Positions 5,172 through 36,781 of a stretch of DNA of 64,000 nt are shown one piece after another. Below the pieces are notes generated by a model. It made no database searches. It was given only the letters and a program-made list of their open reading frames with translations, and had not been told where the DNA came from. The position numbers and the translations under genes are program-made. The stretch comes from an uncultured Phycisphaerales bacterium (lineage in GTDB: Bacteria; Planctomycetota; Phycisphaerae; Sedimentisphaerales; Anaerobacaceae): positions 2,432,001 through 2,496,000 of the forward strand of contig OY970359.1 in NCBI GenBank assembly GCA_963718665.1. The letters are read 5' to 3'. How positions within the stretch are numbered: the first letter of the stretch is position 1; each line of letters opens with the position of its first letter.

Positions 5172-7652
5172 ATGAAGACGCAAAGAGGATTTTTGATTGT
5201 AACGATTGTAGCGTTTGTGTTTATGCTGAGTTTATCCTGCGAACCGAAGTTTGAGCCATTTCAGATACAACCACAAACCGGCGAAAATACCGCCGGACGA
5301 CAGGTAGTCAATTTCAACGGCGACTGGAAGTTCGCCAAAGGCGGGCAGAATGGGGCACAGGCGGTTGATTTTAATGATTCGTCGTGGAAGGCGGTTCGGC
5401 TGCCTCACGACTGGGCAATTGCCGGGCCATTCAATCCAAAGGAAGACGGCTACGCCGGCAAACTGCCCTGGTGGGGGCAGGGCTGGTATCGCAAAAGCTT
5501 TAAGCTCGACAAGGCCGACGCTGGTAAACGCGTATATTTTGATTTCGACGGCGTAATGGCGTTTCCGAAGGTTTATGTCAACGGGCAATTGGCCGGTGAA
5601 TGGGACTATGGTTATATGTCTTTCCGTGTCGATGCGACCCCATTCGTGAAATTCGGCGCCGACAACGTAATTGCGGTGTATGTTGATACTCGCAATCACG
5701 GCACGCGATGGTATCCCGGGGCGGGTATTTATCGCAAAGTAACAATGACTATAACTGAGCCGGTTCACGTCGCACACTGGGGAACTTATATTACGACTTC
5801 CGAAGTGGCCGACGCGTCAGCGAAGGTCAATGTTCGCTCGACTATTGAAAATCATAGCAAGGGCAAATCGAAGGTCAGCGTTGAGGTTACACTGTTTGAC
5901 CCGGATGGCAAGACGGCTGCGACCCTCAAGACCGACGGCGTTGCCATATCGGCAGGAGGGGCAAAGGACGTTAACCAGTCGTTTGTGATTGCAAACCCGC
6001 AGAGATGGGACATCACAAGCCCGAAACTTTATACGGCGAAGACAATTATTCGCCAGGGCGATAAAGTAGTGGATACTGATACGACCACATTTGGCATACG
6101 CGAATTCAAATTCACCGCTGATGACGGATTTCATCTCAATGGCAAACGAGTGCAGCTTCACGGCGTGTGCCTGCATCACGACCAGGGCGCTCTCGGCGGG
6201 GCGTTTTATACCCGCGCGATGGAACGCCAATTAGAGATTATGCGTGATATGGGCGTAAACGCAATTCGCACAAGCCACAACCCGCCTGCGCCGGAATTGG
6301 TGGAGCTTTGCGACCGGATGGGTTTTGTCGTGTGGGATGAGTGCTTTGACAAGTGGGACAAGACCGCGGACAGATTTGACCCCAATAATATGCCGTTAGA
6401 AAAATACGGCGAAAAACAGATTCGCAATTTCGTGCAGCGCGACCGCAATCACCCAAGCGTTGTTGTCTGGTCAATCGGCAACGAAATTGACTCACCGCCC
6501 AAAGACCCGCAGGGCCTGACAAAAGAGCGGGTGAAATTTATGAGCGATTTTGTTCGCAAATACGATTTGACCCGCCCGGTTGGTATGGCCTGTTGTTTTC
6601 CCTACCAGGTGGCAAAATCGGTATTCGACGCACTGGACCTTACCGGGTGGAATTATCAGCGAAGATACGCCCAATACAGGCAGCGATATCCGGATAAGCC
6701 CATCGTTTACAGCGAGTCGGCTTCTGCGCTTAGCACTCGTGGTTTTTATGATTTGCCGCTCAAGGGTTCTAAAACACAATACTCAAAGGAGTTTCAGGTC
6801 GATTCTTACGACCGTAACGCGGCGCAATGGTCGGATATCCCGGACCGCGAGTTTGCTTTGATGGAAAAGGATAAGTTTGTCGCGGGCGAGTTTGTCTGGA
6901 CGGGTTTTGATTATCTCGGCGAGCCAACGCCTTACAGCAGGCAGGCAAGAAGCTCATATTTCGGCATTGTTGACCTCGCGGGCATACCAAAGGACCGCTT
7001 TTATCTTTACCGCAGTCACTGGCGGCCCGATGTTGCCACGGTGCATATACTGCCTCACTGGAACTGGCCCGACAGAATCGGGCAAAATGTCCCCGTGTAT
7101 GTTTATACCAACGGTGACACAGTTGAGCTGTTCCTCAACGGCAAATCCTTAGGCAAACAGACCAAGGCGAAAGAAGCGGGGCCATCTTACTATGGTTCAA
7201 TAGATAAATACCGCCTCTGCTTCAACGACGTAAATTATGAGCCGGGCGAGCTGAAGGCGGTCGCCTATAAGGATGGCTCGGAGATAGGTCAGGAGATTGT
7301 GCGCACGGCGGGTGAGCCAGCGAAAATCCGTCTTACTCCGGATAGAAAAGAGTTGTCTGCCACCGGCGATGACCTCTGCTACATCCTCGTTGAGGCCCTC
7401 GATGCCAATGATACTTTGTGCCCGCTGGCGGATAATCTGATTAAGTTCAAAGTCGATGGCCCCGCTGAAATCGCTGGGGTCGATAATGGCAATCCTCTTT
7501 CTTATGAGCCGTTCCAGGCGGATTACAGGAAGCTGTTCTTCGGCAAAGCAGTGCTGATTCTGCGGACTAAAGAAGGGCAGGCCGGAGACATTCACATAAT
7601 CGCCGACAGTGACGACCTGACCCCTGCGGGCGTTGTCGTCCAAAGCAGGTAG
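5172..7652 (+). CDS. Glycoside hydrolase family 2 (beta-galactosidase-like), probable lipoprotein
   Basis: LPHDWAI, WYRK, GVCLHHDQG, IRTSHNPP, RDRNHPSVVVWSIGNE and FVWTGFDYLGEP motifs; lipobox-like LSLSC. Alternative start 5154. Confidence 0.9.
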   Translation: MKTQRGFLIVTIVAFVFMLSLSCEPKFEPFQIQPQTGENTAGRQVVNFNGDWKFAKGGQNGAQAVDFNDSSWKAVRLPHDWAIAGPFNPKEDGYAGKLPWWGQGWYRKSFKLDKADAGKRVYFDFDGVMAFPKVYVNGQLAGEWDYGYMSFRVDATPFVKFGADNVIAVYVDTRNHGTRWYPGAGIYRKVTMTITEPVHVAHWGTYITTSEVADASAKVNVRSTIENHSKGKSKVSVEVTLFDPDGKTAATLKTDGVAISAGGAKDVNQSFVIANPQRWDITSPKLYTAKTIIRQGDKVVDTDTTTFGIREFKFTADDGFHLNGKRVQLHGVCLHHDQGALGGAFYTRAMERQLEIMRDMGVNAIRTSHNPPAPELVELCDRMGFVVWDECFDKWDKTADRFDPNNMPLEKYGEKQIRNFVQRDRNHPSVVVWSIGNEIDSPPKDPQGLTKERVKFMSDFVRKYDLTRPVGMACCFPYQVAKSVFDALDLTGWNYQRRYAQYRQRYPDKPIVYSESASALSTRGFYDLPLKGSKTQYSKEFQVDSYDRNAAQWSDIPDREFALMEKDKFVAGEFVWTGFDYLGEPTPYSRQARSSYFGIVDLAGIPKDRFYLYRSHWRPDVATVHILPHWNWPDRIGQNVPVYVYTNGDTVELFLNGKSLGKQTKAKEAGPSYYGSIDKYRLCFNDVNYEPGELKAVAYKDGSEIGQEIVRTAGEPAKIRLTPDRKELSATGDDLCYILVEALDANDTLCPLADNLIKFKVDGPAEIAGVDNGNPLSYEPFQADYRKLFFGKAVLILRTKEGQAGDIHIIADSDDLTPAGVVVQSR

Positions 7653-24519: not shown

Positions 24520-25782
24520 ATGGATACGCCGAACGACACACGTCCCCAAAATACTCGTCGGAAATTCGCCGCTATGGTTGGGGTATATTTCGTCGGCACC
24601 CTCAACGATAATTTTTGCCGCCAGTGTGTGATGCTTCTGGCCGTGGCGTGGGGCCTGGCCCGTATGCAGAGTTATATTACCGTTCTGTTTACGGTGCCGT
24701 TTATTATTTTCGCCGCTTACGCGGGTTTTCTGGCGGACCGTTTCTCGAAACGCTCGGTGGTGATTGGCGTTAAGCTCGTCTCCTTCGTCGCGTATATTCT
24801 GGGAATCATCGGGTTTTGTCTGAATAGCTGGGCGATTATTTTGGTTACGGTATTTATCCTCGGCCTTCAGGCCGCGGTTTTTAGTCCCGCGATAAATGGT
24901 ATCATTCCGGAACTATATCCTCCCGCTTTCGTCGTTACCGCAAATGGCATTATCGCCGCGGCTGTCAACATCGCGATATTGCTGGGAATCGCTGGCGCGG
25001 GCCTTGTTCTCGACATCAAAGGCACAGTATGCGATGCTCCCCTCGGTATGTTTCTTGCCGCGACAGTCGGCTTAAGCGTCGCTTTTATCACGTTTGTAGT
25101 ATCCTTTTTTGTCCCCGGATTTCCCGCCGCCTCACCCAAAGCCCGTTTCCCCTGGCAGGGGCCCTGGGAGTCGGTAATCACGATTGCTAAAACCAGAGGC
25201 GATTCTCTGCTCGCTAATTCGATTTTCGCCAAGGCCTTTTTCTGGTTCGCCGCTTCGCTGCAAATTCTTGTTATTAATCCGCTGGGCTTGACGCAGTTCG
25301 GCCTTACCAAGACAATGACCAGCGCTCTGATTGTCATTGAGCTTGTGGGAGTCGGTATCGGCAGTTTGCTCGCTCCTTTGATTGCAAAAGGTGAGAAATG
25401 GTATCGGGTGCTGGTCCCCTCGGGCGTTGTGATGGCCATTGCTATGTTCGCGGTGACGACCGTTCCATATCTGCCTTTGTTTACGCACAAACCGGTCGTC
25501 ATAGGCGCACTGGCGTTTCTGGGAATTGCCGGCGGCGTATTTTCGATTCCAGTAACGAGTTTTGTTCAGGTCAGGCCCGCCCCTGAAATGAAAGGCAGAA
25601 TGATTGCCTCGTCGAACTTTGCCGACTTTGCGGGTATATTACTTTCAGGCGCGGTATTTTATATTTTTAACCGCCTGAATATAATGCCAAGCAACTGTTT
25701 TGCGATTGTGGCTGTTTTAACATTCGCAGCAGCGGGCTGGCTCTTAATGTCACTGCGGGAGAGAACCCAGAATGCTTATTGA
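24520..25782 (+). CDS. MFS transporter, lysophospholipid transporter (LplT/Aas-associated) type
   Basis: GTLNDN, AGFLADRFSKR and FSPAINGIIPEL motifs; many hydrophobic segments; adjacent to the Aas-like gene. Confidence 0.82.
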   Translation: MDTPNDTRPQNTRRKFAAMVGVYFVGTLNDNFCRQCVMLLAVAWGLARMQSYITVLFTVPFIIFAAYAGFLADRFSKRSVVIGVKLVSFVAYILGIIGFCLNSWAIILVTVFILGLQAAVFSPAINGIIPELYPPAFVVTANGIIAAAVNIAILLGIAGAGLVLDIKGTVCDAPLGMFLAATVGLSVAFITFVVSFFVPGFPAASPKARFPWQGPWESVITIAKTRGDSLLANSIFAKAFFWFAASLQILVINPLGLTQFGLTKTMTSALIVIELVGVGIGSLLAPLIAKGEKWYRVLVPSGVVMAIAMFAVTTVPYLPLFTHKPVVIGALAFLGIAGGVFSIPVTSFVQVRPAPEMKGRMIASSNFADFAGILLSGAVFYIFNRLNIMPSNCFAIVAVLTFAAAGWLLMSLRERTQNAY

Positions 25783-28445
25783 TGTTGGGATGATAACGGT
25801 GTCGAGATTCCTGCTTTGGTTGCGGTACCGAATACGCCTCGTCGGTCTCGATGCAATCGAGGCGAAGGGAAAGACCGGAATAGTTTTTCTGCCGAATCAT
25901 CCCGCCCTTATGGACCCCATTATCCTTTATACATATCTTCAGAAGCGTTTCGCGCCTCACGGTTTCGGCGACGTTGACCAGGTCGATAGACCTCTTATTG
26001 GCTTTTTTGCCCGCAGGTGGGGCGTGCGAACTGTTCCGAGTATCGAGAAGTATGGCCCGTCTGCCAGGGCCGAGATTGAAAAGGTCCTCGACGAGACGAT
26101 TACTGGGCTTAAACATGGCGAAAACCTTGTTTTGTGGCCCGCAGGAAGGTTATGTCATAGTTACAAAGAATCGCTCGGCGCAAACAGCTCCGTCGAGAGT
26201 ATTTTGAAAAGTTGCCCCGATGTCCGCGTCGTTCTTGTCCGCACACGCGGTTTTTGGGGCAGCTCATTCAGTAGGGCGTCCGGCAATGAGCCGCTTGTGA
26301 TGTCGGTTTTGCGTAAGGGCATTTTGCAATTGCTCGCCAGTTTTATTTTCTTTGCACCTCGCAGGGAAATCACAATAGAATTTTACGAGCCGCCTGACCT
26401 CCCTCGAAACGCGGACCGTAATATTTTCAATCGTTTCCTCGAAGATTTTTATAACGCCGATGCTCCGCCAAATACCTATGTCCCCTATACGCTCTGGGAA
26501 AGGGGCGGCGTTCGCGTTGTCCCTGAGCCGATGCCGCCGACGTTGCAGTCCGATTATTCGAAAATCCCGTCCGCGACGCGGCAGATTGTTATGACGTATA
26601 TGTCCGAAAAAACAGGCATATCGAACCTCAAAGAGACCGACCGGCTGGCCGCTGATTTGGGAATGGACAGCTTGGTTCGCACCGATTTGCTCCTCTGGCT
26701 CGAAAAGGAATTCGGCTTCCGTCAGGCCGACGCTGACGCGATGCAGACAATCGGCGACGTTATGCTTGCCGCCTGTGGGCAGTTTGTCTATCTTGCTACG
26801 ACTTCCATTAAACCGGTTCCGGCAGGGTGGTTCAGGCCTCATCCCCAAATCTGTGCATCAGTGCCCGACGGCGATTCTATTACCGATATCTTCCTTATGC
26901 AGGCCGCGCGTCAGCCGGACCATATTGTCATTGCCGACCAGATTGCCGGCGCAAAATCATACCGTGACATCGTTACCGCCTGTCTCGTTCTTCGCCCTCT
27001 TATCAAACAGTTCGAAGGCGACCGCATCGGCATAATGCTGCCTGCCTCCGTAACTGCCGATATCCTTTATCTCGCGACGCTTTTCGCCGAAAAAGTCCCC
27101 GTTATGGTTAATTGGACCGCCGGGCCGCGGAATATCCTCGCTTCACTCGATGCCGTCGGCGTAAAACATATCCTCACGAGTAAGGCCCTCGTTGACAGGA
27201 TAACTTTGCAGGGTATTGACCTCTCAGCCGTTACCGAACGGCTCTGTTTTCTCGAACAGTTGAGCGGGAAAATCTCTCGAACTCGCAAACTAATCGCCTG
27301 GCTTGCCGCCCAATTGTCCTGGGCTTCTCTGCGTAACGCCAAAGTCCCCCAAACCGCCGCCATCCTTTTCACAAGCGGCTCCGAAACGCTACCAAAAGCT
27401 GTCCCGCTTTCGCACGTCAATATACTTGCCAACATACGCGATGTGCTTGGCACAGTCAAAATTTACGAAACAGACCGTCTCATCGGTTTTCTGCCTCCGT
27501 TCCATTCCTTCGGCCTGACCGTTACCGTTGTGCTGCCCGTTGTCATCGGCGCAGGCCGTCTATTACGCCAACCCTACCGAATCCGATACCCTCGCCAAAA
27601 TCATCAGTGCGTACGGTGTTACCGTTCTTCTCGGCACGCCGACGTTTCTGGGCGGTATCGTCCGCGTCGCAACCGTTGAACAGCTCGACTCCCTGCGTTT
27701 TGCCGTAACCGGCGCGGAAAAATGTCCCCAACAGGTTTATGATTCTCTTGCCGCGAAATGCAAAAAGGCCGTAATATTCGAGGGCTACGGTGTTACCGAA
27801 TGTTCTCCCATTATATCGCTCAATGATGAAAACGACCCAAAACCATTTTCCATAGGTAAACTCCTTCCCTCGCTCGAATGTCTCCTCCTTCATCCCGACA
27901 CGGAGCGCAGCGCAGGGCCTGCTTCAGCAACATTGAAGCCACTTTCTCCGCCCGCCACCGGCATCCTTCTCGTCCGCGGCCCAAGCGTTTTCGCCGGCTA
28001 TCTCAACTATCCTGGCAAATCGCCTTTTGTCGAAATCGGAGGCAAACAATATTACAACACCGGCGATATTGTCTGCATCGACCATGATGGCCTTATGACT
28101 TTTCAGGGACGACTCAAAAGATTTGCCAAGCTCGGCGGCGAAATGATTTCCCTGCCCGCCATCGAATCCATTCTCGAAGCTGCTTTCCCTGCCCTGAGCG
28201 GGGTCGAAGGACCCTCTGAATCAGATAAGTGGCCGACTCTTGCTGTCGAAGCAACCGAGGCCGAGCAACCTGAGCTTGTCTTGTTTACCTCTCGTGATAT
28301 CGAACGCGAGGAAGCCAATAAAAAAATCCGCGACGCGGGCCTTTCAGGTCTTCACAGTATCCGCAGGGTAATCAAGCTCGACCAGATTCCCCTCCTCGGC
28401 ACAGGCAAAACCGATTACCGTGCACTGAAGCAGCTTCTGAAATAA
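25772..28445 (+). CDS. Aas-like acyltransferase (PlsC)-carrier protein-AMP-dependent acyl ligase, with a frameshift near 27550
   Basis: NHPALMD and WPAG (PlsC); DLGMDSL (ACP Ser); LFTSGSETLPK; second frame AVYYANP, EGYGVTECSP, YNTGD, GRLKRFAKLGGEMISL, LLGTGKTDY. Confidence 0.85.
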
Positions 28446-30449: not shown

Positions 30450-30484
30450 TTAGCCCCTAGGTCTGCCTGGGGGTTATTTTTTTT
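30450..30484. terminator. Hairpin between convergent rplU and U32 genes, probable terminator (TTAG-hairpin family)
   Basis: CCCCTAGG-TCTG-CCTGGGGG followed by a T-tract. Confidence 0.6.
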
Positions 30485-32303
30485 CGTGGGAGTATATTAT
30501 TTCCATCCCACATTTTCCGCATCGAAATTTTACTTCGTATTCCCTGTCATCCTCATCCAGCAAAATCATCGGCTCCACGGGTGTTTTTTCATCTTTTCCG
30601 CCGCATAGCCCCAGTTCCTGTCGTAGGCAGTATTTTGTCGTCATTACCACCTGTCCCGACAAATCCAGCCCCGATTCCGCCGCCGGCTCGATTGTCTCAA
30701 CGCCGTGGCGATGGTAAAACTCCTCCGCCTTTTTGTTCAGCACGTTGCCTCTGAAATCCAAAGTTTGTTGCGGGTAGGGCACATCATTTTTCAGGATATG
30801 ACCCGCCGCGCGAGGCCGATTCACTTCTCTTGCCTCAAGCATTTTTTCAGCCAGTTCCCGTTTCGCGGCGTTCAATCGTGACACAGGCAGAAAATAAACA
30901 TCCAGCGTCTCTACCCGCACCTCCGAACACTCGAAAATCGTATTTCCGAGTTTGCTTAACTGCGTAATAATCGTTTGCTTTGCCTGCTCTTTTTTCAACG
31001 CCGGCTGTTTATCTCCGTTTATTTCCACCGTTGCCTCATTGCTGTCCTCATCAGCCCCGATGAGAATCAATCCCTTGGCCGACTCACGCATAACCATCGT
31101 TAATCCGATTTTGCGTTCTGCGGATTGGCCCGACAGCTTGCGATAAAACTCGTAATCGTAATTACGGTAAATCTTCTCACCCCTTCTTATATCCTGCATC
31201 TTTTGCGGGTAAATCTTTCTGCCCTCAACCCGATTGATGACCGTCCCGGCCAAATTCTTCTGTCTGTCAAAAAAGCAAAGCCCGTCCGCGTTATGCAGTT
31301 CCTGTTCGCCGTCTATGGCAAAGTAATTATTTCCCGTTTCCGTTACCGTGCCCACAAATTCGCCCATCGATTTGGGCGTATCAATTGAGCCAAGATTTGC
31401 TTTCTTGCCTGTAATGCCGTAATCAGAAAATCCCCGATTAAACGTCTTCTCCGGGTTCGGCTCAAAGTTAATTTGTGGCGTTCCCGATGATGCGCGTTTG
31501 AGTTTCTTTTTCGCTATTATTTCATCCAAACGCCTGCGATAAAAACTCACGGTATTCGCGACGTATGCCGTGTCCTTCAATCGTCCTTCAATCTTGAACG
31601 CATCAACCCCCGCGTCAATCAGCTCTTCCAGATGCTCGACTAAGTTCAAATCCTTCAGCGATAACAAGTGTCTGTCTTTGGCGATTATTTTCCCCTGTTG
31701 GTCTTTGACGCTGTATATCCTCCTGCATGGCTGTGCGCATTGTCCCCTGTTGCCGCTTCGTCCGCCGATTGCGTAACTCATATAACATTGTCCGCTCGCC
31801 CCGACACATAATGCGCCGTGTATAAAACACTCAAGCTCGATTGTCGTCGCCTTGCGGATTTGCCTGATTTGTTCGAGTGTCAATTCCCTCGCCAATATCG
31901 CCCGCGAAAAGCCGACGTCCTGAAGAAATTGCACCTTCTCAGGCGTATCGTTATTCATTTGCGTGCTCGCGATTATCGGCAGGCCGGGCAAATCTAATTC
32001 CAATAGCCCCGTGTCCTGTATAATCAGCCCGTCGATTCCTGCTTTTTGAAGCTGGCCAATCATCATCTCCGCCGGCGCAAGCTCATCATCCTTCAAAAGC
32101 GTATTCAGCGTAACATAGACCTTCGCGTAATACTGGTGAGCGAAGTCCGCGACCTGCTTTATTGATTCAACGGTGTTATACGCCGCCTCGCGTGCCCCGA
32201 AGCGTTGTGCCCCCATATAGACCGCGTCCGCTCCGCATTGTATTGCTGTTATCGCTGTTGCCGCGTCCTTCGCCGGCGCCAATAATTCGATTCTTCTGGT
32301 CAT
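30474..32303 (-). CDS. rlhA: U32 peptidase-family protein with DUF3656 (RlhA/YdcP-like rRNA hydroxylase)
   Basis: IELLAPA, GADAVYMG, HGALC-SGQC-RSGNRGQCAQPCR, FKIEGR and VMTTKYC motifs. Confidence 0.85.
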   Translation of the reverse strand: MTRRIELLAPAKDAATAITAIQCGADAVYMGAQRFGAREAAYNTVESIKQVADFAHQYYAKVYVTLNTLLKDDELAPAEMMIGQLQKAGIDGLIIQDTGLLELDLPGLPIIASTQMNNDTPEKVQFLQDVGFSRAILARELTLEQIRQIRKATTIELECFIHGALCVGASGQCYMSYAIGGRSGNRGQCAQPCRRIYSVKDQQGKIIAKDRHLLSLKDLNLVEHLEELIDAGVDAFKIEGRLKDTAYVANTVSFYRRRLDEIIAKKKLKRASSGTPQINFEPNPEKTFNRGFSDYGITGKKANLGSIDTPKSMGEFVGTVTETGNNYFAIDGEQELHNADGLCFFDRQKNLAGTVINRVEGRKIYPQKMQDIRRGEKIYRNYDYEFYRKLSGQSAERKIGLTMVMRESAKGLILIGADEDSNEATVEINGDKQPALKKEQAKQTIITQLSKLGNTIFECSEVRVETLDVYFLPVSRLNAAKRELAEKMLEAREVNRPRAAGHILKNDVPYPQQTLDFRGNVLNKKAEEFYHRHGVETIEPAAESGLDLSGQVVMTTKYCLRQELGLCGGKDEKTPVEPMILLDEDDREYEVKFRCGKCGMEIIYSHEKK

Positions 32304-32847
32304 TACTGTGATTTTAGAACAAATCACGCCTTTAGAAAAGGATTTATCGTCGCTGTTGGCTGTAGTATGATGGACAAAACTTGGAATGAGGTATTTCAAA
32401 CCCGACCTTTGATATATCAAGTTTCATCCGTGACATATCATTGTTCAGCTGAGGCAATCAGCCACAAAAAGGGCTTCTACAGCGTCAAAAATGCTGTTCG
32501 CCGCAAAAATGCACAAAAGGGGCACAAGAAGGGATTAGGAAAGCTTATGTTGGACTAGTTCACGGTTATCAGACACAGATTCACGCAGATTTACCTGATA
32601 TTTCCCATATTAAACGCTTGGCTACGCAACCAAGCCTTCCAGTTCCATAATAATATCAAAATCTTCCTCGAATGACAATAATCCAAGCTGGTTTTTTAGA
32701 TTTTGTCTCCAAATCCGCATCTTATTCAAAACGTTACTTTTATTTGGGAAACCAGATTAACATTTCTTAACGGATAATGTTATTTATGTGCCGGACCTGA
32801 CGATTTTCTGTGACAACTGGCCGCACTAATTGTCAATAAACCTGTGA

Positions 32848-33969
32848 TTATGATGGGTATTGCGATCCTTGCTTGGCTAATTCACAACTTACGTTGTTAT
32901 GCATGCTCTTCGTTTCGGGCTTCAATAGTTTCCTATTCTTCTTGTTCCTATCAGTTTTGTCAAAATAGTCGTCAATCTCATAATAGTACTTGGCAACGAG
33001 CTTCGCCTTGATTGTGATCATTTCACAAAATTCTGAAGCCCAATCTCCACTGAATTTAAAATATTTCAGGTACACATTAACAGGGCAGTAACTCACTAAC
33101 GGGTATTTTCTTGCTGATTCCGAACCGTAAGCTCTCTCTTGAATGTAGGCGCGAAGTTTGTGGTTTCTCTGTTCGTCAATACCTCTGTGTACGTCTCCAA
33201 TCGCAAATTGAGTGCCGAGCTCCATTGCTCTGTGACAAGGATAAAGAATGCCTTGCCAATCGCAAGCGAGCCCCTCGGCTGTAATGCCGCACATTTGGGG
33301 ACAACTGACCTTCTTTAACATCTCATAAAGTTGCCTCGCACAAAGCAAGATACCCTCGCCACGTAGCATTCCCTGTACCAACTTTTCGTATTCCTTCTCA
33401 AAGAGATCAACATCTTTGCGAGTATACCATCCGTAGTTCTGAATCACATTGATGTAAACTCCGTTCTGAAATCCAACATCCCATAGATATCGGAGATTAT
33501 CGTACAGACTAGGAATAATTCCAGCCTGCATCGCAATTGTAACTCTCCCTAACGAGGCCAAACGCGGCAACCATCTACTTATACGGTCAAATCCCCCCCG
33601 CATGGTATCGTGGCGTTTTTTCCGACCATCCAAGCTCAAGAGGACAGAAATTGGCTCACTTTCAAGGAGCGCCATGGTTTTTTTGCCGATTAGAGTTCCA
33701 TTTGTGACAACGCCAATACTTGTATCTGGAAGTTTATGGCGAAGAGCCTCAACTATATGTTCAAACGCATCTTTGCATAGGAGCGGTTCTCCTCCGAAAA
33801 TCTCGACATGATGCGGTCTGCATTTCACGCAGTATTCAACAAAATTATCAATTACCTCTCGGCTAGCTCTTGCCTTGGGCTGCTTATGATATTTTGTGCC
33901 CTGAAAACAATATTTGCATTCTAGGTTGCAACTCGGTGTCAACAGAATATATATGGTCTTGCTATCCAT
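32848..33969 (-). CDS. Radical SAM enzyme with C-terminal SPASM/Twitch-like region, putative peptide maturase
   Basis: CNLECKYC, FGGEPLL, VTNGTL, SLDG..HD.MR and CGIT...DWQGILYPCHR motifs. Confidence 0.9.
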   Translation of the reverse strand: MDSKTIYILLTPSCNLECKYCFQGTKYHKQPKARASREVIDNFVEYCVKCRPHHVEIFGGEPLLCKDAFEHIVEALRHKLPDTSIGVVTNGTLIGKKTMALLESEPISVLLSLDGRKKRHDTMRGGFDRISRWLPRLASLGRVTIAMQAGIIPSLYDNLRYLWDVGFQNGVYINVIQNYGWYTRKDVDLFEKEYEKLVQGMLRGEGILLCARQLYEMLKKVSCPQMCGITAEGLACDWQGILYPCHRAMELGTQFAIGDVHRGIDEQRNHKLRAYIQERAYGSESARKYPLVSYCPVNVYLKYFKFSGDWASEFCEMITIKAKLVAKYYYEIDDYFDKTDRNKKNRKLLKPETKSMHNNVSCELAKQGSQYPS

Positions 33970-34172
33970 TTCAACACAGTCTTTCCTTTGCGTGTCGTCG
34001 GCTCAACCTCTACAGCAACCAGTGATAAACTGAAGGTGGGTTCGAGTCACAAAGACACAAAACTCGCTTTGCGGGTAACTCGCGCCACAAAAACCAGACG
34101 TCACTTGGCAAGCATCTGGCGCAGTTCTCACTCGCTTTCTTCATCAGTTTGTTAAAAGCCGGTCCTACAGAT

Positions 34173-34535
34173 TTAGCCTTGGTTGCTCTGAAGGCACGTG
34201 AACAAACAAGCGGTTCCAATCTGACAACCGCCCGTACTACCGGTTGACTCACAACCCGATGGGGGACATCCTTCAGTCTGAAGAGCCGTGAACAAACAAG
34301 CGGTTCCAGGTTGACAACCGCCCGTACTACCGGTTGACTCACAACCCGATGGGGCACATCCTTTAGAAAGATCTTCGCAAGGTTTTACTTTAATTCGTGC
34401 GAGTATGGTTCTGCTCAATTCAATGAAATGGGATCGTTCTTCCGGTGTGGCGTATTGGTAGGCCATCCTCAATTGAGCCCACAGTGGAATTTCTTTGCCC
34501 TCTGCGTCACTCTGTCTTTTCTGATTTTTAGCCAT
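34173..34535 (-). CDS. Putative RiPP precursor: 58-aa leader plus two tandem Cys-rich 30-aa cores
   Basis: Strong RBS GAAAGGAG; 10 Cys; repeats GC[A/P]PSGCESTGSTGGCQ[P/I]GTACLFT; directly upstream of the radical SAM gene on the same strand. Confidence 0.8.
   Translation of the reverse strand: MAKNQKRQSDAEGKEIPLWAQLRMAYQYATPEERSHFIELSRTILARIKVKPCEDLSKGCAPSGCESTGSTGGCQPGTACLFTALQTEGCPPSGCESTGSTGGCQIGTACLFTCLQSNQG
34187..34363. repeat. Tandem duplication with 90-bp period inside the precursor gene
   Basis: 34187-34273 vs 34277-34363: 80/87 identical by manual alignment. Confidence 0.95.
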
Positions 34536-34800
34536 TGCTCTACTCCTTTCGACATAATAGATAGGAACTTAGATTTCATGACAATGCCCACAAGTCAAAT
34601 GCCGTCGTCCCAGTGGTATTAAGAACACCGCACGCTACACGCTCAACTATTAATTTCCCAACCGGGATTTCCCATTTAAATCTGCTCAGCTACGCCTCTT
34701 AGTCTCATTTCCAATAGAACACAGATAAGTAATACTGCGCCTGTTTTGGAACACATAGCCCACCCATGAGGTTTTCCCTCGCTCAATTCAAATATCTCCT

Positions 34801-35843
34801 TGCTTTGTAGAAACCTTTAATTAAAAGTTCTTTATGAAAAGTAAATAGAGAAGCATCAGGTTGTAGGTCAGAACTCTCATGACGCACTCGGTACTGCGAG
34901 ATTCATTCGTTCGGCTACGAAGGGCGTAGCCAAGACGACGTTTCATGCGAGACATAACACTCTCAACTTGCCATCGCTGACCAAACTTACGTTTCGGGAA
35001 GTTATTCTTCATTTGATTTCGGTAATGGCCTGTAAGCTCGCCTTTTTTACCTCGTCGGTTGTTGATAGCGATAATCGTCGAGCGGATGCCGAGATACTGA
35101 CGACAGAATTTATGGTTGGCTTCTGCGTCATATCCTGCATCACCCAAAAGCCGGTCTATAGGCAGATTAGTTACCGCCTGGGAAACTGCCGGCATAAGGT
35201 AGGAACAATCATTGCTGGGACCAGTGCTGACCAAGCCGGCAGCAATCAGATGGCTGGCATTGTGGCAGACAACCGTAAGTTTTGTCCATCGGCGATATTG
35301 CTGGGTATGTTTGCCTTGACGCATTAGAAAATGTCGGCTGACAAACCGGCTTTCCAGCCCCGTCGAATCAATGGATGCCTCGGGGCGTTCCTCGATTAAG
35401 CCATCGCGGCTGGCAATACTGAAAATGGCGGCTAACAGCTTGTCCCAAGCCCTTTTTTTAGCAGACGTTGCTGTGCTTTTTGAAGGGTAGTGTAGTGAGG
35501 AATTTTTGACAACCCAATCGCAGCTCTCAAGTCCGTGAAGTCCGCCAGCAACTGTACAATCCCACGATAGTCGGTTTGAAAAAACTGTCGCAGAGTCAAA
35601 ATGGCGAACAACTGTGCCTGTGTAAAATCGTGGCGTGAGCGATTGGCTGAATATGGCGAGAGTGCCGTTGTGGCTGTCTGAAGTGCCTGCTTTGCCAGCA
35701 TAACAGGTGATTTGGTCATAACTCCGTGTTTGGCCATCGTGGAATCCTTTCCAACGCGGTTTATGGCTGAAACCTAAGTTATTGTTATTATTAACACTTA
35801 TCGCCATGACTAAACCTTATGCTTCAATCTTTTCTACAGAGCA
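34801..35843 (-). mobile_element. Complete insertion sequence (about 1.04 kb, DDE transposase, IS4/IS5-like)
   Basis: Terminal IRs TGCTTTGTAGAAA / TTTCTACAGAGCA (12/13 match); direct repeat ATATCTCCT at 34792-34800 and 35844-35852. Confidence 0.92.
34821..35719 (-). CDS. DDE transposase in two frames joined at an A7 slippery run
   Basis: Frame 1: MTKSP...FTQAQLFAIL...PHYTTL...LLKKG. Frame 2: SIDSTG, LLGDAGYD, RWQVESVMSRMKR. Junction at 35453-35459. Confidence 0.88.
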
Positions 35844-36133
35844 ATATCTCCTGTCATATCTGAACATATTTTTCTCCCAAGCAAGGCACAATTAAATATA
35901 TCATCCTCCACAGGTGTGGGGCCATGTTGCTTTTGTCAGCTTATGCAAGCCACTGAAGTTGTCAAGTAAATTTTGCCACTTTTTGGGATTTATTTTTATT
36001 AACCGTCAACAATTGGGAGCGGGGGACGCCTTTAATTGTGGGGTTTAAGCTGCGGAGGGTTTCTGCGCGATTAACGACCTTGACAGTGAATCCTGTTCCA
36101 ATTCTTTTGTGATGCTCATTTTACGAACGATTT

Positions 36134-36781
36134 TCAGCGGTCTCCGCGATCCCCGCGGTTAATGATTTCTTCTGCTCTTTTGCGCCACTGCTGGGGCCCT
36201 TTTTGCAGAAAATACTCGAACGACTCATCATCCGCCAGTTTCCCCAATATGGCTTTGCGTTCCGATGCGTCTGCTATCTTTTCGATTATGAACCCTCGAA
36301 TTGCCTCAAGCGAAGCCAGAAATTCCCCGTGCTTTTCTGTAAATATATTTTCCAGTTTCTTTCGCAGGTGTCCCGCGTAAGATGGGCAATTTCCATCGGT
36401 TCCTATCGCAATCTGTAAATCCCCTCGCTGCACCACGGCAGGTACATAAAAATCACAAAGCTCAGGCGAATCGACCACGTTGCACAATATCTCCAATTGC
36501 TGGCAATCCTTGTAAATCTGCCTGTTTAACGCCTCATCATTCGTTGCCGCGATGACCAGCGTCGCCCTTCCGATGTAATCCTTTGAATATTTGCTCTCTA
36601 TCAGCTCTGCTGTAGTCCCTGAGCATACTTTGCGAAGCATCTCATCGAGACGCGGGGCCACCACGACTAAGCGTGCGCCGCTGCACAGAATTGTCTCTGC
36701 CTTTCTTGTGGCCACGCTGCCGCCGCCGATGATAACGACTCGCCTGCCGTTCAAATCCAGGAATATCGGATATTTCGCCAT
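36134..36781 (-). CDS. Precorrin-2 dehydrogenase / sirohydrochlorin ferrochelatase (SirC/Met8/CysG N-terminal type)
   Basis: YPIFLDL, IGGGSVATRK and NVVDSPELCDFYVPA motifs. Confidence 0.9.
   Translation of the reverse strand: MAKYPIFLDLNGRRVVIIGGGSVATRKAETILCSGARLVVVAPRLDEMLRKVCSGTTAELIESKYSKDYIGRATLVIAATNDEALNRQIYKDCQQLEILCNVVDSPELCDFYVPAVVQRGDLQIAIGTDGNCPSYAGHLRKKLENIFTEKHGEFLASLEAIRGFIIEKIADASERKAILGKLADDESFEYFLQKGPQQWRKRAEEIINRGDRGDR

Follow-up and report, generated by a model that had tools for sequence, protein, structure and literature searches.

We examined a 64,000-nucleotide stretch (hereafter the window) of contig OY970359.1, assembly GCA_963718665.1, positions 2,432,001 to 2,496,000, from an uncultured Phycisphaerales bacterium, and within it two genes on the minus strand: one for a radical S-adenosylmethionine (SAM) enzyme of 373 aa, P0001 (32848..33969), and one for a peptide of 120 aa with 10 cysteines, P0002 (34173..34535). 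The pair probably belongs to a new family of thioether-forming RiPPs (peptides that are ribosomally synthesized and then modified post-translationally), in which the enzyme would itself bind the leader of its precursor and close cysteine thioether rings with one auxiliary cluster. In 19 loci a homolog of the peptide precedes a member of this enzyme family, and the enzyme is without an N-terminal RiPP recognition element (RRE) and has an eroded SPASM domain. Co-inheritance of the two genes, their domain anatomy and the loss of ligands for the second auxiliary cluster (AuxII) can all be read from sequence comparison.

The initial annotation placed a co-oriented 120-aa open reading frame (ORF) with a strong ribosome-binding site about 200 nt upstream of the radical SAM gene, and this arrangement holds: both genes are on the minus strand, the gap between them is 203 nt, and AAGGAG (34543..34548, minus strand) stands 7 nt ahead of the precursor ATG. 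The gap folds no better than its shuffles (z -1.44). The two near-identical cores that had been described, each spaced C-x4-C-x8-C-x5-C, are likewise real, forming a 90-nt tandem direct repeat on the minus strand whose copies are 91% identical in DNA. Each copy spans 30 codons, the first (34277..34366) with four cysteines and the second (34187..34276) with five, one of them extra (x3); C53 is the single cysteine ahead of the first core. A six-frame survey of the genome gave 4116 ORFs that start with ATG and encode 60-150 aa. Cysteine makes up 8% or more of the product in 124 of them, and in this subset only the precursor contains a 25-aa repeat, within itself, at 72% identity or higher. The window peptide finds no match among Pfam or NCBIfam models, in keeping with the earlier view that it belongs to no recognized family, and a search of the ESM Atlas with the peptide was uninformative, giving no usable match.

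The comparison set comprised 39 loci (2 genomes, 37 metagenomes), of which 21 include the enzyme N-terminus, 3 are without it, 3 hold C-terminal remnants and 12 carry distant enzymes. Inspection of homolog neighborhoods for similar upstream peptides, the check proposed in the initial annotation, found a leader-bearing small ORF 16-232 nt upstream of the enzyme in 19 of the 21 loci with the enzyme N-terminus; these 19 include three identical or near-identical pairs, leaving about 16 distinct cases. No precursor was seen in the 91 nt and 403 nt of upstream DNA of the other two, L006 and L003. Sixteen of these loci, together with 3 proteins, supplied the sequences for a leader profile. Because it came from the same loci, each was left out in turn; the upstream ORF then ranked first in 15 of 16 loci, in 14 at E <1e-3, and the best E against 45 loci of distant radical SAM genes (436,440 bases) was 0.25. 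In the window peptide the conserved leader covers residues 17-47 (34395..34487, minus strand), with the motif P-[LMG]-W-x-x-L-R...A-x-x-x-E and a predicted helix-turn-helix fold: AlphaFold places helices at 18-25 and 31-47, with pLDDT ~90 over residues 21-40, and leaves the core unstructured. P17 and W19 are invariant in all 20 aligned precursors. The initial annotation had taken the core as the defining feature. The alignment reverses this, the leader being conserved and the cores variable, so that the precursor family is defined by its predicted helical-hairpin leader. Many precursors have Lys-rich N-termini, and those of L014 and L019, 87 and 108 residues long, match a histone-H1-like model. 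In both of these precursors (L019:7454-7960; L014:177-584, with a single cysteine) the fused portion consists of long histone-H1-like Lys/Ala repeats, and a third precursor (L002:7614-7967) has a hydrophobic stretch with the look of a signal peptide ahead of the leader motif.

Every one of the 20 aligned precursors has core cysteines, from 1 to 16 each, set in variable Cys/Ser/Thr/Gly tracts that often form CxxxC ladders; these are long in L007, L009, L010 and L016, and the window peptide has a single CxxxC. Cysteine statistics were computed on 19 precursors, L009 being dropped as a near-copy. CxxxC occurs 68 times (68 of 112 Cys-Cys intervals are x3), compared with 22.8 +/- 4.0 in shuffles, none of 2000 shuffles equaling it. 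Ser, Thr or Gly stands at +3 after 87 of 131 cysteines (44.8 +/- 4.9 in shuffles), the bias among non-ladder cysteines being 42/63 against a background of 45.5%, and 9 of the 10 cysteines of the window peptide fit C-x-x-[S/T/G]. From these counts we tentatively entertain a Ser, Thr or Gly three residues past each cysteine as the acceptor, with some doubt. The acceptor in thermocellin is reportedly at +2; we considered that position and rejected it, C-x-[S/T] not being enriched (34 vs 33.3). Core aromatics are few (0-4 residues, and 5 of 20 precursors have none), which speaks against cyclophane chemistry, and the aromatic motifs of triceptides are absent from the family cores. The multi-core precursor of the initial annotation stands for the window peptide and falls as a family trait, since the five closest precursors (L001, L005, P0077, P0078, P0225) have one core each. 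By this comparison the two cores in the window are a recent local duplication; P0228 carries three copies of a different core, and core duplication is therefore recurrent, not defining.

The enzyme family is sharply bounded. A search with P0001 returned 63 relatives at 39-66% identity (234-545 bits), followed by 10 proteins at 22-31% identity and at most 74 bits. A profile search of 1.84 billion representatives yielded a few divergent members and a sister group at ~190-200 bits. Our alignment has 56 rows, the query and 55 of the 63 relatives, the 8 short ones being left out. The window enzyme matches the radical SAM model PF04055 at 53.5 bits (cut-off 29.5). The CxxxCxxC of its SAM-binding cluster (C14, C18, C21; 33907..33930, minus strand) recurs in 53 of 56 members, the other three being truncated or having one Tyr. 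The AlphaFold model of the enzyme has a pLDDT of 91.7 and a pTM of 0.88 and is consistent with the partial TIM barrel of the superfamily, all family-invariant residues are retained in the window enzyme, and both reading frames of the pair are intact.

The initial annotation implied a canonical SPASM thioether synthase, which the enzyme is not, being without an RRE and without three AuxII ligands. In 52 of 56 members only 11-28 residues precede the first motif cysteine; three others are truncated, and one has a 78-residue start that overlaps the precursor gene and is probably miscalled. A candidate natural precursor-enzyme fusion, P0035, was rejected, its extension having no leader and being a translation of the precursor gene in another frame. 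The genome (94.6% complete) yielded no PqqD-type protein. By domain anatomy, then, this is an enzyme family without an RRE domain. The SPASM motif is described as seven cysteines, CX9-15GX4C-gap-CX2CX5CX3C-gap-C, holding two clusters (PMC6231123). The family has the first, second, sixth and seventh of these; the CxxC is found in 0 of 56 members, the fifth cysteine is absent, and a search with PF13186 gave no match at the enzyme gene. The region of residues 210-315 (33025..33342, minus strand) holds C210, C227, C245, C295 and C315, the last in 54 of 56 members. C227, C245 and C295 are invariant and align with C344, C362 and C413 of CteB, which we take to be ligands of the first auxiliary cluster (AuxI). 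C295 also aligns with C330 of the anaerobic sulfatase-maturating enzyme (anSME), an AuxI ligand (PMC6231123). The AuxII positions C400, C403 and C409 of CteB correspond to G282, S285 and L291 in the window enzyme, and on this alignment three of four AuxII ligands are lost in the family. C210 is an extra, invariant cysteine, and C236 occurs in 44 of 56 members.

Four sister proteins (P0088, P0091, P0093, P0104) form a separate supported branch beside the family in a tree of 33 rows with long branches and an unsure root. They are RRE-less, keep the CxxC, are without the third AuxII cysteine and have Asp at position 210. This partial ligand set suggests that AuxII was lost stepwise, with the sister clade as an intermediate stage. 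The six catalytic-site residues, as defined in PMC10288494, read FFVSHR in the window enzyme and exactly so in 28 of 56 members; CteB has FFTSHQ (4/6 shared) and anSME FQQSDF (2/6). These residues favor CteB over anSME, and TigE-like chemistry would also be compatible with them. Two of the four sister proteins have FFTSHR, identical to CteB in 5 of 6 positions. A His follows the AuxI cysteine in 39 of 56 members, as in CteB and not as in anSME or TigE.

We infer leader binding, cluster content, chemistry, cleavage and function as follows. The 120-aa precursor would be the substrate of the neighboring radical SAM enzyme, and its helical-hairpin leader would dock directly on the enzyme; we propose direct docking because there is no RRE in the enzyme or in the genome. 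A precedent is SuiB, where the helix of the leader binds to the catalytic and bridging region and not to the RRE (PMC8326336). A 5'-deoxyadenosyl radical would then take hydrogen from a small residue near a core cysteine, and the thiol of that cysteine, activated at the single auxiliary cluster, would close a thioether ring with a loss of 2 Da. Further rings would close in the same way down the core, to a total of up to nine in the window peptide, and linkage to the alpha-carbon or to the beta/gamma-carbon would be allowed. SkfB makes thioethers with one auxiliary cluster (PMC6231123), CrpC needs AuxI and not AuxII (PMC13692751), and for CteB and PapB the substrate thiol is proposed to bind at an open site of AuxI (PMC12373016, PMC8326336).

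Most likely the product would remain intracellular, as a small stapled protein, or be trimmed by general proteases, because no dedicated protease or exporter accompanies the pair. The earlier observation that the pair has neither a peptidase nor an exporter beside it extends to the loci scanned, none of which points to a conserved one: ORF lists of 18 loci share no third gene, and 32 neighboring ORFs from 14 loci include no peptidase family and no sulfatase family. One ABC exporter without a peptidase domain lies downstream of the enzyme in L006. Of the three C39-like domains encoded by the host genome, not one has an ABC ATPase motif; processing in trans by these was considered and set aside, as they are not linked to the cassette. 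A bolder elaboration seems rather doubtful to us: the pair would be the smallest radical-SAM system for stapling peptides, the one-cluster, RRE-less enzyme would read the helical-hairpin leader directly and modify almost any cysteine tail by way of a new active-site Cys210, and a product of the L014/L019 type would be a retained, thioether-stapled nucleoid protein instead of a natural product for export.

Several observations weigh against thioether formation by a CteB-like enzyme. Identity to CteB is ~22%, CteB leads anSME and ChlB in the fold comparison by 2-3 Z units, and all family-model scores are far under the curated cut-offs. The catalytic site of TigE, FFVSKG, also shares 4 of 6 residues with the window enzyme, and TigE is presumably not a thioether synthase. 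Among non-ladder cysteines a bias at -1 (39/63) is nearly as strong as that at +3, the +3 count includes related sequences that are not independent, and P0228 has Asp and Tyr at +3. Cysteine spacing is not fixed, and L014, L004, L015 and L023 have only 1-3 cysteines. On the side of co-occurrence, L003 has no precursor in the 403 nt available, and the leader profile missed L019 when that locus was left out. Finally, the linker that precedes the SPASM hairpin contains the invariant C210. AuxI of SuiB is completed by a linker cysteine, which leaves no site for a substrate thiol (PMC6231123); by analogy C210 could fill the fourth AuxI site, and because of this likeness a CteB-type mechanism may not apply.

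The peptide might instead be the substrate of a non-thioether chemistry, such as C-C or C-O crosslinking, an anSME-like oxidation of Cys or Ser, or epimerization with C210 (or C236/C315) as hydrogen donor, the core cysteines being engaged in disulfides or metal binding. Peptide epimerases use a spare cysteine as hydrogen donor. The loss of three AuxII ligands together with the new invariant Cys210, replaced by Asp in the sister clade, would suit this alternative, as would the 4 of 6 catalytic-site residues shared with TigE, the position of the RRE-less anSME and ChlB within 3 Z units of CteB, and SuiB, a non-thioether enzyme with AuxI fully ligated by a fourth, linker cysteine (PMC6231123). 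We nevertheless think it unlikely: cysteine is the only residue type in every core and has a strong four-residue period, the His after the AuxI cysteine in 39 of 56 members is that of CteB and not of anSME or TigE, aromatics are too few for cyclophanes, and the epimerase EpeE stands far lower in the fold ranking (Z 15.7).

That the small protein goes unmodified, as a metallothionein-like metal-binding or Fe-S-binding partner or a regulator of an enzyme with some other substrate, appears improbable. CxxxC ladders can in general bind metal, no peptidase or exporter is conserved, and the N-termini of several precursors are long and rich in Lys, in two cases histone-H1-like. A conserved leader followed by a hypervariable, unstructured, repeat-expanding core is, however, the usual anatomy of a RiPP precursor, the nearest described relatives of the enzyme are peptide maturases, and no other gene is common to the loci that could supply a pathway.

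The distribution of the two genes is scattered. Named members of the enzyme family come from Deltaproteobacteria, Alphaproteobacteria and Ignavibacteriaceae, with one fragment labelled as a Micrarchaeaceae archaeon, and one precursor is from a planctomycete. At E 1e-40 the enzyme family was found in 0 of 23 congeners, 0 of 150 genomes of the bacterial family and 0 of 400 genomes of the phylum searched, many of these genomes being incomplete. One housekeeping protein encoded in the window shares 90-96% identity with its counterparts in 8 named genomes, most of which are labelled Sedimentisphaerales or Phycisphaerales, and the host is accordingly a planctomycete of this group. Genome-contig scans with the single proteins P0001 or P0057 detected no family member, and a scan with the alignment detected two; the aligned precursors contain no segment conserved well enough for a scan of this kind. 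Viral contigs gave 32 loci, all distant (at most 35% identity) and none a family member; 133 plasmid records likewise included no family member, with 25-28% identity among the 10 matches listed. In L011 and L029 an integrase or transposase sits next to the unit or what is left of it. The precursor and enzyme genes are best explained, on these sequence comparisons, as a self-contained two-gene unit moving horizontally across unrelated microbes. In L011 the ORF directly upstream of the precursor (6517-7248) encodes a tyrosine integrase that looks integron-like by eye; past it, several successive ORFs lie on the opposite strand. Three other loci (L029:1062-1229, L030:1951-2118, L033:444-614) retain no more of a family enzyme than its C-terminal ~55 codons, with an IS200-like transposase ORF upstream of the remnant in L029 and L030; these fragments are remnants of lost cassettes.

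In the window the pair lies in a 3.8-kb block between the U32 gene and sirC (32304..36133, unstranded) that is absent at all nine congeneric loci. In eight of these the U32 gene directly adjoins sirC, and in the ninth (L052) an unrelated 999-aa gene occupies the junction; we regard the block as an insert because the congeneric loci are without it at the U32-sirC junction. The second insert, at L052:4988-7987, encodes a secreted-looking protein at the same junction, and the site may therefore be an insertion hotspot. The flanks named in the initial annotation as housekeeping genes are a U32 peptidase-family gene and a SirC/CysG-N gene, and the islet is AT-richer as described, with a G+C content of 44.6% where the genome has 49.2%; both cassette genes have a third-position G+C of 0.41-0.45, and four housekeeping genes one of 0.56-0.65. 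For the U32 gene (30474-32420) the most likely start is 32303, the point from which it resembles the congeners, and not the longer TTG start. Elsewhere in the window (25772-28445, plus strand) a gene resembling, by eye, an acyltransferase/acyl-carrier/AMP-ligase is split into overlapping ORFs, 25772-27679 and 27528-28445, in what appears to be a frameshift or sequence error.

The earlier account of the islet overlooked a 1043-bp insertion sequence between the peptide gene and sirC (34801..35843, minus strand; DDE transposase 34821-35807), which has terminal inverted repeats and a 9-bp target duplication and lies 265 nt upstream of the precursor. It has seven copies in the genome, the other six at 99.3-100% identity, and is a recently active IS4/IS5-type element; its transposase scores below every NCBIfam transposase cut-off (best IS5 model 97.8 vs 140). 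A genus-wide, promoter-like element of ~80 nt, with a promoter-like 5' half and an 8-bp hairpin, lies downstream of the enzyme gene (32591..32673, minus strand), and a degenerate copy with a broken hairpin lies ~130 nt upstream of the precursor (34664..34718, minus strand). The element has seven copies in the genome, and 21 of 23 congeners carry it 1-18 times each. Eleven other loci with the element were examined, and in 10 of these an ORF of at least 60 aa begins within ~105 nt downstream of it, and such ORFs often open with signal-peptide-like sequence. Covariation in the hairpin is slight (2 of 11 pairs), and an Rfam scan of 32250-36200 gave no match. The intact and decayed copies, in direct orientation around the cassette, may bear on its insertion or expression. 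A dif-like or attC reading of this flanking repeat was considered by eye and dropped. Promoter and terminator counts are not clearly above chance (8 vs 6.0 and 6 vs 3.8). That the window copy of a genuine RiPP family is a silent passenger, its expression cut by the insertion sequence 265 nt upstream and the promoter-like element with its broken hairpin, and the unit absent from 23 of 23 congeneric genomes, strikes us as very improbable given the intact frames, the retained family-invariant residues and the strong ribosome-binding site, and would in any case be compatible with the preferred thioether reading for the family as a whole. No RNA run is listed for the locus among sequencing runs, which says nothing on expression.

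Catalogues of radical-SAM RiPPs have taken RRE domains or adjacent ABC transporters as their starting point (PMC10288494), and a family with neither would escape both filters. A word search of the supplementary data set of that article, covering words only and not sequence, gave no match, and titles and abstracts in the literature, most subscription papers being outside coverage, included none describing the enzyme-precursor family. The enzyme is a natural deletion experiment on the roles of the second auxiliary cluster and the RRE, and the pairing of one leader with very different cores suggests a compact, tolerant macrocyclization catalyst.

Compared with known systems, the enzyme resembles thioether synthases more closely than it does anaerobic sulfatase maturases, as the initial annotation supposed, by family-model bits, by profile and by fold. 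Against NCBIfam it scores best with the PapB model NF047865 (E 3e-36; 125.1 bits, cut-off 340), followed by the SCIFF maturase (80.7/425), CcpM (80/500) and the CXXX-repeat maturase (76.3/350), and reaches 48.8 bits with the anaerobic sulfatase maturase model TIGR03942 (cut-off 349.45). The closest solved structure by profile is CteB (E 5e-32, vs 2e-17 for anSME), which is also the closest fold (Z 30.7, root-mean-square deviation 3.2, 317 residues aligned), followed by anSME (28.4) and ChlB (27.7).

With CteB/CteA (thermocellin, a SCIFF ranthipeptide; 5WGG, 5WHY; TIGR03974) many members of the family share CxxxC cores rich in Cys, Ser and Thr. CteB has an RRE, whereas the model of the window enzyme aligns to CteB residues 91-450 only, and the AuxII CxxC and third cysteine of CteB are lost in the window enzyme, which has gained C210. 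The CteA leader is unrelated to the helical leader found here, the window system is not clostridial, and the SCIFF peptide model matches none of 20 precursors at E up to 1. PapB/PapA (freyrasin) resembles the window system in repeated cysteine motifs within one precursor. The acceptor spacing of PapA is CX3D, whereas Asp or Glu stands at +4 for none of the 10 cysteines of the window peptide and Asp for 5 of 131 in the family. PapB, which joins Cys to Asp/Glu, relies on an RRE together with two auxiliary clusters (PMC12373016). The CXXX-repeat system TIGR04115 is matched by the window enzyme over positions 2-348 of a 359-position model. Its target models TIGR04114 and TIGR04117 match 5 and 4 of 20 precursors weakly (best E 1e-5 and 0.011), matches that stem, as far as visible, from members with cysteine ladders and not from the leader; the window peptide matches neither.

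The RRE-less architecture is shared with anSME (4K36-4K39) and ChlB (9GM3, 9GMC), and ChlB indicates, by the title of its entry, that an RRE-less SPASM enzyme can bind a leader. The catalytic site agrees with that of the window enzyme at 2 of 6 residues in anSME and at 1 of 4 readable residues in ChlB; anSME has both auxiliary clusters fully ligated, whereas the window enzyme is without three AuxII ligands and has no adjacent sulfatase. SkfB (6EFN; Z 19.4) is a thioether synthase with a single auxiliary cluster (PMC6231123), built with an RRE and a truncated Twitch domain, whereas the window enzyme keeps a C-terminus of SPASM length with its ligands substituted. Judged by score and by defining features, the system is outside the SCIFF, freyrasin, TIGR04115 and anSME families, and its predicted mode of working is most like that of the CteB/PapB type.

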